From NCBI GenBank assembly GCA_008632985.1, contig QPGO01000214.1:1-64000 (forward strand): DNA of 64,000 nt, read 5' to 3'. Made by a program: the position numbers and the translations under genes. Shown piece after piece: positions 1-64,000 of the stretch; position 1 is the first letter of the stretch; each line of letters opens with the position of its first letter. The notes under the pieces were generated by a model, which made no database searches, was not told the DNA's origin, and worked only from the letters and a program-made list of their open reading frames with translations. Source of the DNA: Psammoneis japonica. Its lineage: Eukaryota.

Positions 1-420
1 TGTGAAAGTCACAACCATTGATGCGGAAGGTTTGGAGGTCAACAATTTCTGTGGCAGCAACCTGAGTGCTGGAGGCAGACTCCATGCAGCATTGTCATGC
101 AACCGCGCAGCTTGTTTCATGGCTGTGCTAAAGCAGCATCTCGAGGCTTCCAACAAATGTGCAGCCGCTTTGTGGATCCACCCTCTCCACATGAAAGCAA
201 GGCTGAGGAGGTGTCAATGCTGTGCTCATTCAGACCAATTTGACGATGCAGTTGCAGAACACAAGAGGTGTGTTGAGCTTGTGAAGGACACCAAGCAGGG
301 AGCAACTTCCACAACAAATGCTCCCTGTCAGTTTGATGTGCTGATCAATGTCTCTGCCACAGATGTCGGCAAAGCAAAGGCCAAGTTGGCAGTTGCTGAA
401 AAGGCCAAGAAGGAGGCCGT
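1..420 (+). pseudogene. Decayed TPR fragment of a DNAJC7-like co-chaperone
   Basis: ORF 2..493 has 'LSCNRAACFMAVLKQHLEASNKCAAALWIHPLHMKARLRRCQCC...AEHKRC', matching the TPR pattern YxNRAA...AL...PxYxKAxLRRAxxY with Tyr positions occupied by His/Cys; lies in a TpA-free domain. Confidence 0.55.
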
Positions 421-2632
421 GAGCATGGCAAAATGTGACTCGTTTGGCAAGAAGGAAAATGAACCTAACAAGCAGGACGGCATTGCCACTTGAGACTCCA
501 AGAGTTTCATCCAGAAAGATGCATTTGAGAAGGATGAGGATGTGTGCCACAAGAAGGATGACAAGAAGCACAAGGCCATGATCCTCAATGCCTTCAAGGA
601 TGATGAGCTTGTTCCCTGCTGCTTCGTTTGTGTTTTCAAGCCCACCGGGCACATTGACACTGCATGCAAGTGCCTTTCCGCCTGTTGGAATTGCGAAGCA
701 TGATCAACAGATGGTTGCGGAACACAGCAGATTGTAGAATGTGTTGATTGCAACAATTTCAAGTGCTGCAGTTGGCTTGTGAAAGCATGTCAATGGAGGA
801 AGCTTGTGAAGTCTGTGGAACTGCCAGTGTTGTCTCCATGCCACACACTGGCACATTCTTGGAGCCAACTAAAAAGCTGCTGGCAAGCAATCTCTGTTTC
901 ACAAAAAAGCGGCTTGGCATGGGACTTGGACAGGATGCACCATGATGAAGGGAATCAAAAACAGAAACAACTTTTCATGACATTCAGAGAGAGGGATCCA
1001 CTGTCAAAGATCTGATGATTCCCGGGTCATCAGAAATTCCAAGATTCATGGTTTCAACACGTGTTTTCATTGAGTGGAGCCACGCAGCGTGGATCACAGT
1101 TCAAACAACGAGACTTTGCACTTGCCCCAAAGATGCCAACACACCCAGAGATCAATCTGAATTTGCACATTTTGCTCACATCTTCAAAAAACACTGCCCT
1201 GCAAGATGGGCACATTGGCTCTTTTTGGATTCGTCGGCAGATTTGGGCACAACAAGTGACTTTGACTTGAACTTTTTAAAGCATGGACGAATGTGAGGCA
1301 CAGCATGCGTGGTCCAGCTGCTTTGGGACAAGCATGTTGCTGAACGGATCAATGGTTTTTTTCTTGATCGAAGTCAACAATTGAAGCTGTCACCAACAAT
1401 TGCCAGATGTTGTGCAGTTCCAACACAATGCAGCGCGCAGCTGCTCTCACGGCGTCTTGAATGAAATTGAGATTTCCATCTGTTTCTTGATCAAAGTGGT
1501 CTCTTGTTTGACAATGATGAACTTCCTGGAAAGGCTCATGTGCTTTTCAGGACCAAGTGCCATCAGTGGGCTTCACACATCAGAGGCTGAAAAAAGGAAG
1601 GAAGCCACGGCCGCTCTTCCAATGCAAGCCCTGCATTGTGATTGCAGTGCCCGATTTGCATCCTGTCTGTGAGATGGAACAAAGAATGCTGAAGACCGTT
1701 CATGCTCATTTCTCCATCAATGATGGGTGGGACAGAAGTCCAGTGGACTTGCTCCAACCAAGTGGATCTAAGAACAGATTGCCAAAGCAATGCAGCTCAC
1801 CATGTTGAGAGGCAATTTTGACAGCACTGACAACCGCTCTGATTTGTCATGTGCCATTCCTCACCCTTGCTGAGAATGTGGTCGACCACAGCAAGGAACA
1901 AAGACATTCTTGCAATGATCATCAAACAGAAGCACTTGCTTGAAATTGCAAAGGATGATCCACACATCAGCATGAGACAAGAGCAATTTGATCAGAGTTT
2001 CAAAAACACAGCCACATGCCAAGATTGTGACAACAAATCCACATCATCATTTTCCACTTGTTTGAATGTGCAGCGCTCAGGCCTGGCAGATTTTTCCTTG
2101 ATTGTGCCCTGTGTGTGCACCAGGTGCTGAAAAAGAAGATGTGTTGCGACTTTGTCATTGTGAAAATTATGAGCCAGTTTAGAGTAGAGAAAGTGGGATC
2201 ATGCGAACAGGGAATCTTGCCAAATCCCTGTTCATTCGCATTTGGATCGCATCAAATCGATCGTGCGTTCGCATTGTGGATCGTGCGAATCAAGCCATCA
2301 TGCGCCATGCACGAGTGATGTCATCGTGTGGAATCAAGCTGCCATCGTGGGCCAGACGACGGGCCAGTGTGCTTCACACGGATGCTCTCTTGGCATCCTT
2401 CTGGAATTGCCCAAGACCTGGAGCCACGCCCTCCTGTGGTCGTGCTTCCCAGGTGCGCGTTGACAATGCTGCGTTGCCATGCACAAGAGGTTTGTGCACG
2501 GTCTCGCCGTGTTGTCCAGCAGCGAGGCATGCTGCAATTGCCATGCTCACATCTGTGTTCTCTTTGCATGGGACAAACTTGAAAAGGTCGCATCGAACTT
2601 TTTTTCTCTCCAGTTGGTGGCAATGTTTCACT

Positions 2633-61540: not shown

Positions 61541-64000
61541 TGGATGATCTCTTGCTCCATGAGTCACGAGTCAACAACCGAGTCTGATTCACGGATGACG
61601 CTTCCGGTCATGGATCTCTTCTTCCGGAAGAAATGTCCGTTGAGTCTTCTAGCGACAGCAATCGGAGTGACACACACGACCGTTAGGTCATAATGTCATC
61701 TCCAATCCCTCGTGAGATCTTCTCACAATTCGCATCTTTAGCGCATCTCATTGTCCCAAAACTGCTTCTTGTCATCCTCTGTTGTGTTGTACAACCTCAA
61801 GAGAGTCCTGAACTCTCCATCCTACACAGTGCATTGTTGCATCCCAAGTGGTTACGACCCCAATCCACGCACCGGCATCAACTCGCAACGGAGTTGCTGC
61901 CACTCGTTCGTCTCGTTACAGACGACATCCTGTCCAACGGCGATCTTCTGTGTCGCAATCCAACGGCGATCATCCATGTCGCAATCCCTGCCTGCTAATC
62001 GATCCTCTGTGTCGAATCATCCACAACCATGTGATGCAAACCTTGACCAACCCTCCTGCGATCCCCATGCCGCTTCGCGGCGGCATCCACCACTCTCATG
62101 GAGTGCATCTGGGTGGTTCGGCTCTGAACAACAAGTGCGAGCAGACCGACACCCGCACCTGCCGTTTTGCCTCGCAACGTCGCCATCCGAAAGCTGTCGA
62201 CTCCATCGAGCGATCTCTCAGAGATCAACTCGCTTCGGCAACCACATCCAAGTTCAACGGCCAGATTGAGTTGTCCAACGGTTCCAGCACTGAACTGGAC
62301 AAAGACCACTTCGTCAAGACCATTCAGGACTTAATCGAGTCGCACGGACAAGAAACTTTCTACCATCTCAAGAAAGTCGACGGCAAGGTCATGCACCTTT
62401 TTGATCATCTTCACGCCTTCACTGTCAAAGACCTTGAGAAGGAATGTGAGACCCGTGTGGCGGCTGCAGGTGACGAAGGCTACGATCAGCATGAAATTGA
62501 TGACATCGGCTTGTCACAACTCATCGTCAAGTCGCGCATCACCGAAACCTTCCGTGAAAAGATTGAAACCAAGTTCAATCACTTGAAGAACTACAAGGAT
62601 CTTCCGGGGTCTGTCTTGTTTGTGATGGCTCTGGATGCCTGCAACGCCAGTGCTCTGGTTGACGTCAAGGCCGCCAAGGAAAAGTTGAACGACTTAACTC
62701 TGGACACCTGCCCTGGCAAGGACTGCACCGAGCTTGCAACCGAAGCTCTGCACCTGCTCAAGATCATGCAGACGGACCATGCGTCACCAGTTGAAACTGG
62801 GTCCACCATTTTATCTAAGGTGTCAAAGACATCCTCCGAGTTTTTCAATCGTCAAGTTTTTGCCAAGCTCGACTCCGTCAAGCGCTTGGAGCGCAAATGT
62901 CGCTTGCGTGACCCGGCAGAAGTCCCCAAGGATGCCGACCATGCGGATCTTGGACCTGTTGGCCTCATTGGCTGGATCACCAAGACCCATGGCGAACTCA
63001 TTAGCAATGAAGATTGGCCTGCCTTAGCAGCCAAGCTCCCGGAATCCAACCTCGCCAAGGACAACTCGGAAAAGCATTGCTGCGGCTGTGGCAAGGTTGG
63101 GTGCACCAAACGCACGTGTCCTGCCTGCAAGGAGCAATGCAAGAAGGACAAAAAGGGCACGGCGGACAAGTCCAAGGATGACCCTCCGGATGTCCGGAAG
63201 ACCAACCCTTCCAAGAAACCACCCAAGCCGGCCTGGCGTTTCGTTCACAAAGGTGCCACTGTCACCGACGAGAAAGGCACGACCTGGCACTGGTGCGACA
63301 AGTGTGTGAACAGGGAAACGGGCAAGAAGGGCATGTGTCAAGGCCACTCCTCCGCTCAACACACCGGGAAACTGTCTGTCAAAACCGAAACCACCGCTGC
63401 GGCAAATTTATCTGCTGTGTCGGACCCCTCTTCGGGCATTCCTTTTGGTCCTCCCGAGCAGACGACGTCTCCGCCTACAGACAAACCCTCTGACCCTGAC
63501 GAGCTGGTTTGTTGTGGCATGTGGTGTGCACCTGTGGACGACTCTTTGAGTTCGACTCCAGTGACTACGACCGTCACGTTCACTCCTGCTCCTTCGGCCG
63601 AGAGGGAGACCACCGTGGCCAAACCCGCTCCCATCTTGGTTGAGACGGTTGACCCCGAAGACGCTGACGATTGCTCCGAGTGCTCCGACGCTCACTCCTC
63701 TTTTGACTCCCTACCATCAGCTGTCGAGCTATTTCCGGCCTGTGCCATGCATGAGATTCAAAATCCGGACGTGTTTTATGACACGATCGCAACTCACGTG
63801 GAAGGTCTGTCCGACGATGTGTCAGACGATCTCGTTTCCGGGGCAAGCATCCCACCTTTCGAAGACAGCTACGAGCACTTACCTCCAAGCACCCAGTGTC
63901 GCGGTTTCGAATTTTACGATCCCGAACCCCAAGATGTTGATTGTGGCGTCGAGGAGGCAACGCCGAGCTCTCGTCTTGAGCTCTTCTGGAACTTCTTGAA
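61541..64000 (+). mobile_element. Diatom Ty1/Copia (CoDi-like) LTR retrotransposon, 5' part; left boundary approximate
   Basis: Abrupt switch from GDSL coding sequence to non-coding leader, then a gag-like ORF running off the window. Confidence 0.65.
62034..64000 (+). CDS. Copia gag(-pol) ORF, open to the window end (absent from the ORF track because it has no stop)
   Basis: My translation: MQTLTNPP...'LPGSVLFVMAL...LTLDTCPGKD...THGELISNEDWPA...CCGCGKVGCTKRTCP (Zn knuckle)...TWHWCDKC...H...H'. Confidence 0.75.
   Translation, partial: MQTLTNPPAIPMPLRGGIHHSHGVHLGGSALNNKCEQTDTRTCRFASQRRHPKAVDSIERSLRDQLASATTSKFNGQIELSNGSSTELDKDHFVKTIQDLIESHGQETFYHLKKVDGKVMHLFDHLHAFTVKDLEKECETRVAAAGDEGYDQHEIDDIGLSQLIVKSRITETFREKIETKFNHLKNYKDLPGSVLFVMALDACNASALVDVKAAKEKLNDLTLDTCPGKDCTELATEALHLLKIMQTDHASPVETGSTILSKVSKTSSEFFNRQVFAKLDSVKRLERKCRLRDPAEVPKDADHADLGPVGLIGWITKTHGELISNEDWPALAAKLPESNLAKDNSEKHCCGCGKVGCTKRTCPACKEQCKKDKKGTADKSKDDPPDVRKTNPSKKPPKPAWRFVHKGATVTDEKGTTWHWCDKCVNRETGKKGMCQGHSSAQHTGKLSVKTETTAAANLSAVSDPSSGIPFGPPEQTTSPPTDKPSDPDELVCCGMWCAPVDDSLSSTPVTTTVTFTPAPSAERETTVAKPAPILVETVDPEDADDCSECSDAHSSFDSLPSAVELFPACAMHEIQNPDVFYDTIATHVEGLSDDVSDDLVSGASIPPFEDSYEHLPPSTQCRGFEFYDPEPQDVDCGVEEATPSSRLELFWNFL

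Follow-up and report, generated by a model that had tools for sequence, protein, structure and literature searches.

A probable regional hypermutation that erases TpA in place from putatively silent islands of a diatom genome

The closest described counterpart of the process treated here is a TpA-only A>G/T>C hypermutation in the chlorarachniophyte Bigelowiella natans (Mettrop et al., bioRxiv 10.64898/2026.01.13.699255). According to that preprint, 231 of 302 new single-nucleotide mutations in Illumina-sequenced mutation-accumulation lines fell in two silent integrated viral regions, which consist of giant-virus and virophage DNA. All but one of the mutations in these regions were A>G or T>C, and all those lay at TpA, at a rate about 1000 times the background. 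The B. natans genome holds 124 TpA-poor, CpA+TpG-rich clusters, and an ADAT2-like protein was proposed as a candidate enzyme. Here we analyzed a 64,000-nt stretch of DNA from the diatom Psammoneis japonica (assembly GCA_008632985.1, contig QPGO01000214.1, positions 1–64,000, forward strand; hereafter, the window), which contains five islands almost free of the dinucleotide TA. We conclude with good confidence that these putatively silent islands have undergone regional, in-place hypermutation that erases TpA. The signature, its direction, its in-place action, its strand symmetry, its sharp limits, and its flank bias are demonstrated in this paper.

Two other known processes resemble this one in part. 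Fungal repeat-induced point mutation (RIP) resembles a genome defence and loads duplicated or selfish DNA with transitions in limited regions. Its change is C-to-T in duplicated DNA, by which TpA is created. ADAR hyper-editing and APOBEC3 in animals are context-specific deaminations against selfish nucleic acids. Their substrates are RNA or single-stranded replication intermediates, their trace is confined to one strand, and the base changed by APOBEC is C. In the window, by contrast, the changes affect A:T pairs on each of the two strands of resident DNA.

The whole window contains 1720 TA (observed/expected ratio (o/e), 0.40), 3008 CG (0.80), 5315 TG (1.33), and 5367 CA (1.34). A sequence-only reading made earlier had proposed five sharply bounded, nearly TA-free domains at ~1–3400, 7490–9130, 19950–27750, 51900–57850, and 59200–61550, which are numbered D1–D5 from left to right. 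Within these coordinates, the TA o/e values are 0.06, 0.01, 0.04, 0.04, and 0.09 (13, 1, 19, 18, and 13 TAs, respectively), whereas the four stretches between the domains give 0.54–0.67. The 13 TAs estimated by eye in the first 3400 bp are thus the exact count. All five domains stand, though the list was incomplete, since 61551–64000 is also affected (TA o/e 0.21). The mean TA spacing in the normal DNA of the window is 24.4 bp, and TA-free gaps of at least 300 bp occur 30 times (the longest being 1407 bp) against ~0.006 expected under a geometric model. At every limit examined, the island edge is a step spanning under 100 bp. The TA-poor islands are confirmed as a real observation, and their refined limits, with two partly depleted zones, are as follows.

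1–3324, unstranded: island D1, 12 TAs with gaps up to 618 bp, truncated by the window start
~6750–7484, unstranded: partly depleted zone before D2, TA o/e 0.18–0.47, with 234-bp and 21-bp tandem repeats and CA/TG double mismatches between copies
7485–9144, unstranded: island D2, 1 TA in 1660 bp
19956–27787, unstranded: island D3 (7.8 kb), 18 TAs over 7832 bp, the longest TA-free gap being 1111 bp
51809–57869, unstranded: island D4, 18 TAs in 6061 bp, 12.2 CG per kb vs 59.8 in normal DNA
59363–60992, unstranded: island D5, 3 TAs in 1630 bp, 35.6 CG per kb (mild CpG loss)
60993–64000, unstranded: right-hand partly mutated zone that extends as far as the window end, with TA o/e 0.11–0.29 and normal CpG (CG o/e 0.72–1.08)

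The five domains also have a lowered CG o/e (0.21–0.63, compared with 1.00–1.12 in the four stretches between them) and raised TG and CA o/e values (1.5–2.4). AA, AT, TT, and GA are not depleted, and the G+C content is 0.47–0.57 in the islands and 0.45–0.48 outside. TG and CA counts are balanced in D1, D3, D4, and D5 (364/350, 854/896, 670/671, and 235/231, respectively). D2, with its C-rich, strand-skewed array, is the exception (125/288). The losses of TA (38.3 per kb) and CG (40.0 per kb) together come close to the gain of TG and CA (85.4 per kb), and the total numbers of pyrimidine–purine dinucleotides per kb are 238 vs 245. The composition shift is therefore a closed exchange among pyrimidine–purine steps. 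Over all six frames, Tyr accounts for 0.0% of residues in the islands vs 2.4% outside, while Cys accounts for 6.5% vs 3.6% and His for 5.3% vs 3.2%. No sense codon becomes a stop when TA changes to TG or CA (a new stop arises only from CGA to TGA), so that open reading frames (ORFs) in the islands stay open and Tyr becomes Cys or His.

The C-to-T changes with excess TpA and lowered G+C that mark RIP are not found in the islands; TpA is destroyed there and G+C is not lowered, so the earlier statement that RIP runs in the opposite direction is borne out. Biased gene conversion was dropped in view of the unchanged G+C and the undepleted AA, AT, and TT, and APOBEC-type editing of C was dropped because the wrong base is changed. 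The islands might also be foreign or specialized DNA that is inherently TA-poor, or DNA under selection against TA, with no local mutator at work. Part of D2 is indeed a motif array that perhaps never had TA. This explanation is most improbable, since AA, AT, and TT are undepleted at unchanged G+C and hence no general AT-to-GC pressure exists, since the islands are mostly noncoding relics without a recognizable domain, and since unmutated paralogs and outside homologs, described below, show that TA and Tyr codons came first.

The direction of change was read from unmutated copies. Normal copies at 4271–4372, 5363–5569, and 5583–5675 align to D2 in three BLAST alignments (402 columns), two of which overlap on the D2 side, so that some D2 sites are counted twice. 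Eleven of the 14 TAs in these normal copies read TG/CA in D2, two are kept, and one reads otherwise. Their 17 CGs read TG/CA in ten cases, are kept in four, and read otherwise in three, while TG is unchanged in 28/36 and CA in 25/28. A three-way alignment contains a site at which both normal copies have TA and D2 has CA. The purine/pyrimidine recoding of the window, which masks transitions and was used to find diverged copies, provided a second comparison through a transposable element (TE)-like fragment.

15880–16380, minus strand: unmutated relative of D4 52540–53045, a TE-like fragment in normal genic DNA, used for polarizing

Positions 15897–16367 (reverse) pair with 52551–53030 in D4 over 496 columns with 84.7% identity after recoding, vs 62.5% plain identity. 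Among the TAs of this relative, 12/20 read TG/CA in D4, one is kept, and seven read otherwise; 32/38 of its CGs read TG/CA and none is kept. In the pooled comparisons, in which a few sites are counted twice, 23/34 TAs of unmutated copies read TG/CA in the islands and three are kept. In these old and saturated pairs, with CG to TG/CA changes running alongside, the fraction of A>G per adenine is 0.35 at TpA and 0.10–0.19 after A, C, or G.

Protein-level comparisons and other contigs point the same way. The codon change from TAY (Y, pyrimidine) to CAY gives His, and that to TGY gives Cys. Two frames have outside homologs with conserved Tyr columns.

2–538, plus strand: dead fragment of a TPR–DnaJ-type cellular gene in D1, with no tyrosine and an in-frame TGA
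61848–63998, plus strand: gag-like ORF of a copia-type retroelement, open for 717 codons, Tyr-poor and Cys/His-rich

The local copies have His or Cys in 14 of the 18 conserved Tyr columns. Of these columns, 13 lie in the gag-like ORF, where four read His, five Cys, two Tyr, and two another residue; other residue classes are mostly kept in this ORF. In the TPR fragment, all five columns read His (3) or Cys (2), as judged from 98 segments in the first 100 of 150 listed matches. The conserved Tyr to Cys/His changes that the sequence-only reading had claimed are found in both. Moreover, other contigs of the same sequencing run(s) have TA at 12 sites where the window has TG/CA, with one site in the reverse sense, among 40 differences listed, with 73 more beyond that list. 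The paralogs, the Tyr to His/Cys changes, and the TA-bearing contigs support TA to TG or CA as the direction, as had been proposed.

Comparisons between island copies bear on where and on which strand the changes arose. The repeats concerned are as follows.

2602–2896, minus strand: dispersed repeat in D1, common to D3 20202–20491 in inverted orientation
26607–26957, plus strand: 117 bp x 3 tandem array in D3 detected by TRF, with copies that differ by transitions only
51861–52401, plus strand: left long terminal repeat (LTR)-like end of D4, paired with 56876–57375
56876–57375, plus strand: right LTR-like end of D4, paired with 51861–52401

Nine island-to-island alignments (1555 columns, with overlapping tandem-array rows) contain 56 adjacent double mismatches, 27 of which are CA vs TG. 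The corresponding number in 16 normal-to-normal alignments is 6/33, and four of these six fall in the partly depleted array adjoining D2. The LTR-like ends of D4 differ by 11 CA/TG double mismatches. The three 117-bp units are 100% identical after recoding; nine of their 11 variable columns are in TG/CA pairs or in a site with CATA in one unit and TGCA in each of the others, suggestive of an ancestral TATA. Recoding raises the identity from 95 to 100% among these units, from 91.5% over 260 nt to 97.3% over 295 nt for the D1/D3 repeat (20 of 22 mismatches being transitions), from 81%/77% to 91%/91% for the D4 ends, and from 80 to 94% (79.7% to 93.9%) for D2 vs 5359–5571, the 5′ part of D2 (7457–7820) being a mutated paralog of 5359–5683. 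Sister copies with paired TG-vs-CA differences mean that the same ancestral site was resolved differently after the copies arose. Judging from these alignments, the mutation took place in situ and on both strands.

This observation bears on ADAR-like A-to-I editing of retroelement transcripts before reverse transcription and integration, which we consider hardly credible. ADARs are known from animals and favor a 3′ G, whereas the poor substrate in the islands is TAG/TAA. An A>G trace limited to the sense strand and made before integration is not found: TG and CA are equal, so both strands are hit equally, and the divergence between the two LTRs of a single insertion, like that between tandem-array copies, postdates insertion. 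Among the sequences hit are also a cellular gene fragment and arrays that are not TEs. What speaks for such editing is that some islands are retroelements and that, according to the Discussion of the B. natans preprint, ADAR prefers an adenine that follows a U.

The loss of TA is also separable from that of CpG. In the island cores, deamination of 5-methylcytosine explains one half of the shift, namely CG to TG/CA, but it is unable to remove TA, and the loss is not limited to CpG (38.3 TA vs 40.0 CG per kb). Each TA-free zone encloses a smaller CpG-poor core, past which TA loss extends for 0.3–1.3 kb. At the left edge of D3, CG stays dense for ~1.3 kb beyond the point where TA ends, and at the right ends of D3 and D4, CG recovers ~0.3–0.5 kb before TA does. 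The CpG-depleted core of D3 (~21250–27300) has CG o/e of 0.03–0.25, vs 0.56–0.94 at its edges. D1 is CpG-poor at 1–2000 and near normal at 2000–3300 (1–3400 as a whole: TA o/e 0.06, CG o/e 0.49), and D5 and 60993–64000 have little TA yet a CG o/e of 0.6–1.0. Almost-TA-free zones with such CG values show that TpA loss is a process separate from CpG decay, faster or wider. The mutator was thus correctly distinguished from 5-methylcytosine deamination in the sequence-only reading. CpG decay in the islands is itself context-dependent: survival is ~0.63–0.69 for the CCGC, CCGG, and GCGC types and ~0.19–0.23 with A/T flanks, and the surviving CpGs lie mostly in G+C-rich flanks.

The flanking bases of the TAs that survive in the islands should be noted. 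Thirty-five of 52 survivors are YTAR (R, purine), vs 259/1602 (16%) of the TAs in normal DNA (Fisher p=1e-15). They comprise 18 CTAA/TTAG, 14 TTAA, and three CTAG, while ATAC/GTAT and ATAT have no survivor. Relative to the density in normal DNA, TA survival is 0.258, 0.036, and 0.004 when zero, one, and two strands, respectively, offer 5′-TAY-3′. A per-strand product model with a survival of 0.51 for TAR and 0.071 for TAY predicts 0.005 for the two-TAY class and gives a TAY:TAR rate ratio of ~3.9. The same bias is seen in the partly mutated zone 60993–64000, where 13/35 TAs are YTAR vs 16% in normal DNA (p=0.004). Random new TAs generated from CA/TG would be YTAR in ~21%, and the excess over this value is significant (binomial p=9e-13). 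The adenine of each strand therefore seems to be an independent target, lost approximately four times faster in 5′-TAY-3′ than in 5′-TAR-3′.

DNA that escaped the process is informative on targeting. One element serves as an internal control.

46103–50920, minus strand: young intact Ty3/gypsy element, with LTRs 99.66% identical and a 1379-aa ORF containing reverse transcriptase, RNase H, and integrase

This element is unmutated (TA o/e 0.60, CG o/e 1.41), including its 293-bp LTR duplicates, a further difference from RIP. Repeats are present in many islands, as duplication as a trigger would predict, but this element, whose LTRs are duplicated, and the TE-like fragment (15880–16380) are untouched; the evidence on duplication is mixed. 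Several island limits coincide with gene ends, and the right edge of D3 adjoins the start of the ORF at 27744–29351. From the untouched gypsy element and TE-like fragment, the dead cellular gene that was hit, and the limits at gene ends, we infer that a silent chromatin state, not sequence repetition as such, decides the target. The sequence-only reading had named TEs, tandem arrays, and duplicated fragments as the targets. All of these are present in the islands, but the dead TPR–DnaJ-type fragment in D1 is a cellular gene in addition to them.

Modified bases in the repeats might have been miscalled as TG/CA where the DNA has TA. In favor of such an artefact, the islands are also CpG-poor and so probably methylated, and the only run found has no recorded library type. 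The public run X1 contains 96% of the sampled words of 50900–59200; runs X2 and X3 contain next to none of the stretch. The listed contigs of X1 show zero differences over 51689–54690, 55278–59358, and 59775–60738, while 54663–55374 is represented only by a contig with 24 differences. The word depth in the islands is 31–39, equal to that of the unique flank. Exact 31-mer contigs at flank depth mean accurate reads, so the short-read check proposed earlier favors the assembly as far as it can be run, though X1 may be the assembly source and its agreement marks accurate reads rather than an independent sample. The changes are moreover heritable and old, repeat copies having resolved the same ancestral site differently; Tyr to His/Cys changes lie in an ORF that remains open; and paralogous TA-bearing contigs coexist with the window copy and differ from it by transversions too. 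Base miscalls could not give rise to the evolutionary evidence on direction described above. The same signature arose de novo in the B. natans lines, which were sequenced by Illumina. A miscalling artefact is therefore very unlikely.

The direction, the in-place action on two strands, and the separability from CpG decay support the separate, context-specific mutator that the sequence-only reading proposed. The islands would be putatively silent, non-genic DNA, that is, LTR retroelement relics, tandem arrays, and dead gene copies. In them, a regionally confined process would act on either strand of TpA, replacing its A:T pairs by G:C, until TA is nearly gone. Adenine in DNA may be deaminated to hypoxanthine at TAY and then be read as G at the next replication. 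Ordinary methyl-cytosine CpG decay would be superimposed in the smaller island core, with TpA loss being wider and earlier. Given that the process is real, DNA adenine deamination is the leading candidate for its chemistry and quite possibly the right one, but we make this assignment tentatively. A TadA-derived editor variant has been reported to prefer a YAC context. The resistance of TAR in the islands loosely resembles this preference, which may serve as a lead and not as a test.

A lesion on the thymine side is unlikely, though it deserves serious weight. A TET/JBP-type enzyme would oxidize T in 5′-RTA-3′ to 5-hydroxymethyl- or 5-formyl-uracil mispairing with G, or an error-prone repair or polymerase step would be recruited to silent chromatin. 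TA is self-complementary, so "A in TAY" equals "T in RTA". Oxidized thymines mispair with G, and the hydroxymethyluracil of dinoflagellates favors TpA. The window contains no deaminase, and nothing speaks directly against a thymine-side lesion. Indirectly, the B. natans authors prefer an ADAT2-like adenine deaminase and cite DNA-editing ADATs, and the YAC preference of the TadA-derived variant indicates that this fold can read both neighbors.

Several points weigh against hypermutation by adenine deamination, or against parts of this account. Searches of 20, 127, 42, and 3 frames of the window against Pfam gave no match to a deaminase, TET/JBP, or DNA methylase, in agreement with the earlier remark that no causal gene is visible there; no enzyme candidate is thus at hand in the window, and the sequence fits an adenine-side and a thymine-side lesion equally. 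All counts from paralogs are low, and the pairs behind them are old and diverged, with transitions in other contexts also reaching 10–19%. The flank rule presupposes island ancestors with the TA contexts of present normal DNA, and a direct test of strand choice by flank gave 9/14 informative sites as predicted, which is not significant. At 7820–9125, D2 is a C-rich short-motif array whose lack of TA may reflect amplification of a TA-free motif. The signature of TA erasure is seen in 0/9 environmental relatives of the gag-like ORF (TA o/e 0.19 in the ORF vs 0.43–0.90 in the nine metagenome relatives, which were chosen by protein similarity and lean towards intact copies). No TE identity could be assigned to D3, D5, or the interior of D4 from protein homology. 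We nevertheless retain regional, in-place TpA hypermutation at the confidence stated at the outset.

The contents of the islands are mostly relics. The D1 frame 2–790 has 178 homologs at E≤0.001 (best, 8e-24), and both TPR and DnaJ are present in all five scanned homologs. A tblastn search with eight of the homologs matched only nt 2–538 of the window, and the DnaJ part downstream of the TPR fragment was not found in this search. D4 is an old LTR-bounded, multi-copy element plus ~0.5 kb on its right. Many contigs of 90–95% identity pile on 53164–56115, and the summed contig depth marks the element as multi-copy. The 320-aa ORF of D4 has no relative among 2066 candidates. The gag-like ORF has 17 homologs, one with PF22936. 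At 61282–62000, the summed contig word depth reaches 2000–5800, as compared with ~32 for unique sequence; the beginning of the copia-like element, which is a probable LTR and leader, is therefore part of a very abundant family of the genome. Among the 127 stop-to-stop island frames of at least 80 aa, the sole surviving Pfam match is a GDSL-lipase-like frame at 60883–61548 on the D5 edge; the other frames give nothing below E=0.004, and three weaker matches fall under the cut-offs. Codon-periodicity (RNY) scans give a weak coding signal in D4, D3, and D5.

Some further frames and repeats were seen. In the D2 array, all three plus-strand frames of 7757–9157 are open for 240–466 codons, so that a gene caller would predict overlapping proteins. 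A minus-strand frame at 19950–21263 runs for 438 codons, interrupted by no more than two TGA stops. In it, a proline-rich part is followed by a coiled-coil-like one, and the frame lacks tyrosine and has normal CpG. It is partly the repeat common to D1 and is possibly a dead copy of a multi-copy gene. The read-through frames at 19950–21263 and 230–790 (both minus) have no Pfam match. The normal stretch 3563–7435 contains tandem duplications (77 bp x 1.9, 256 bp x 2, 234 bp x 2.5, and 21-bp units), with 3986–4531 repeated at 4860–5459 (a roughly 1.08-kb repeat); no Pfam match was obtained in this stretch. The genes between the islands encode DENN, WD40, TPR, guanylate kinase, and ADP-ribosyltransferase domains (Pfam). 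The DENN-domain gene shows 58% identity to a relative from the diatom Conticribra weissflogii and up to 68% to others, which places the window in a diatom. The first codons and upstream part of the ADP-ribosyltransferase ORF (15035–16018, minus strand; PF03496/PF01129) lie inside 15880–16380, and this TE-derived piece may serve as its 5′ end or promoter. The LTRs of the gypsy element (46103–46395 and 50628–50920) differ only at one CA-vs-TA site; a change of this sort is what the island process makes, but one site proves nothing. A tblastn search of the window with the gypsy polyprotein gave the self match only.

The sequence-only reading knew no description of such a system. The B. natans preprint does describe one, so this claim does not hold, and by analogy the diatom process is probably of the same kind. 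Both processes change A>G/T>C at TpA to give TpG/CpA on either strand, both are confined to sharply limited regions that are foreign or silent (putatively so in the diatom), and both are associated with long-term TpA-poor, CpA+TpG-rich clusters that include TE-type domains. They differ in host, a chlorarachniophyte there and a diatom here, and in that de novo events are recorded there and a fossil trace only here. The TA o/e is 0.45 in the B. natans virus region vs 0.01–0.09, near saturation, in the islands, and what has been hit here is relics of retroelements, tandem arrays, and dead gene copies. The islands also have CpG decay nested inside them, while the word "CpG" is absent from the main text of the preprint. 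Likewise, the TAY-over-TAR rule is found here, while "flanking" and "trinucleotide" are absent from that text. Our search of the full-text literature found no report of TpA hypermutation in a diatom, and TpA-specific hypermutation only in the B. natans preprint. What is new here is the diatom case, the near saturation, and a testable TAY target rule; the kind itself has been described once before, in the preprint.

These findings have consequences for annotation and for models of diatom genomes. The islands hold long spurious ORFs because only TGA stops remain, protein homology is erased, and gene and TE callers will mislabel them. Purine/pyrimidine recoding is a simple remedy that restores the lost similarities. 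Models of diatom mutation rate and composition should allow for a second hypermutable dinucleotide. As a speculation that we regard as rather doubtful, diatoms and chlorarachniophytes might share an old, chromatin-guided DNA-editing defence, in which a deaminase, perhaps of the TadA/ADAT fold, would read 5′-TAY-3′ on either strand of silenced DNA, erase TpA to saturation, and leave open, tyrosine-free, Cys/His-rich frames that could seed new genes. The two lineages and the TAY-over-TAR rule offer a handle for finding the enzyme, e.g., by phylogenetic profiling, and the enzyme sought would be a naturally occurring one that edits A:T pairs within double-stranded chromosomal DNA. If the process is the same as that in Bigelowiella, it would be a genome defence present in at least two distant branches of SAR (stramenopiles, alveolates, and Rhizaria), one of which comprises major primary producers of the ocean.

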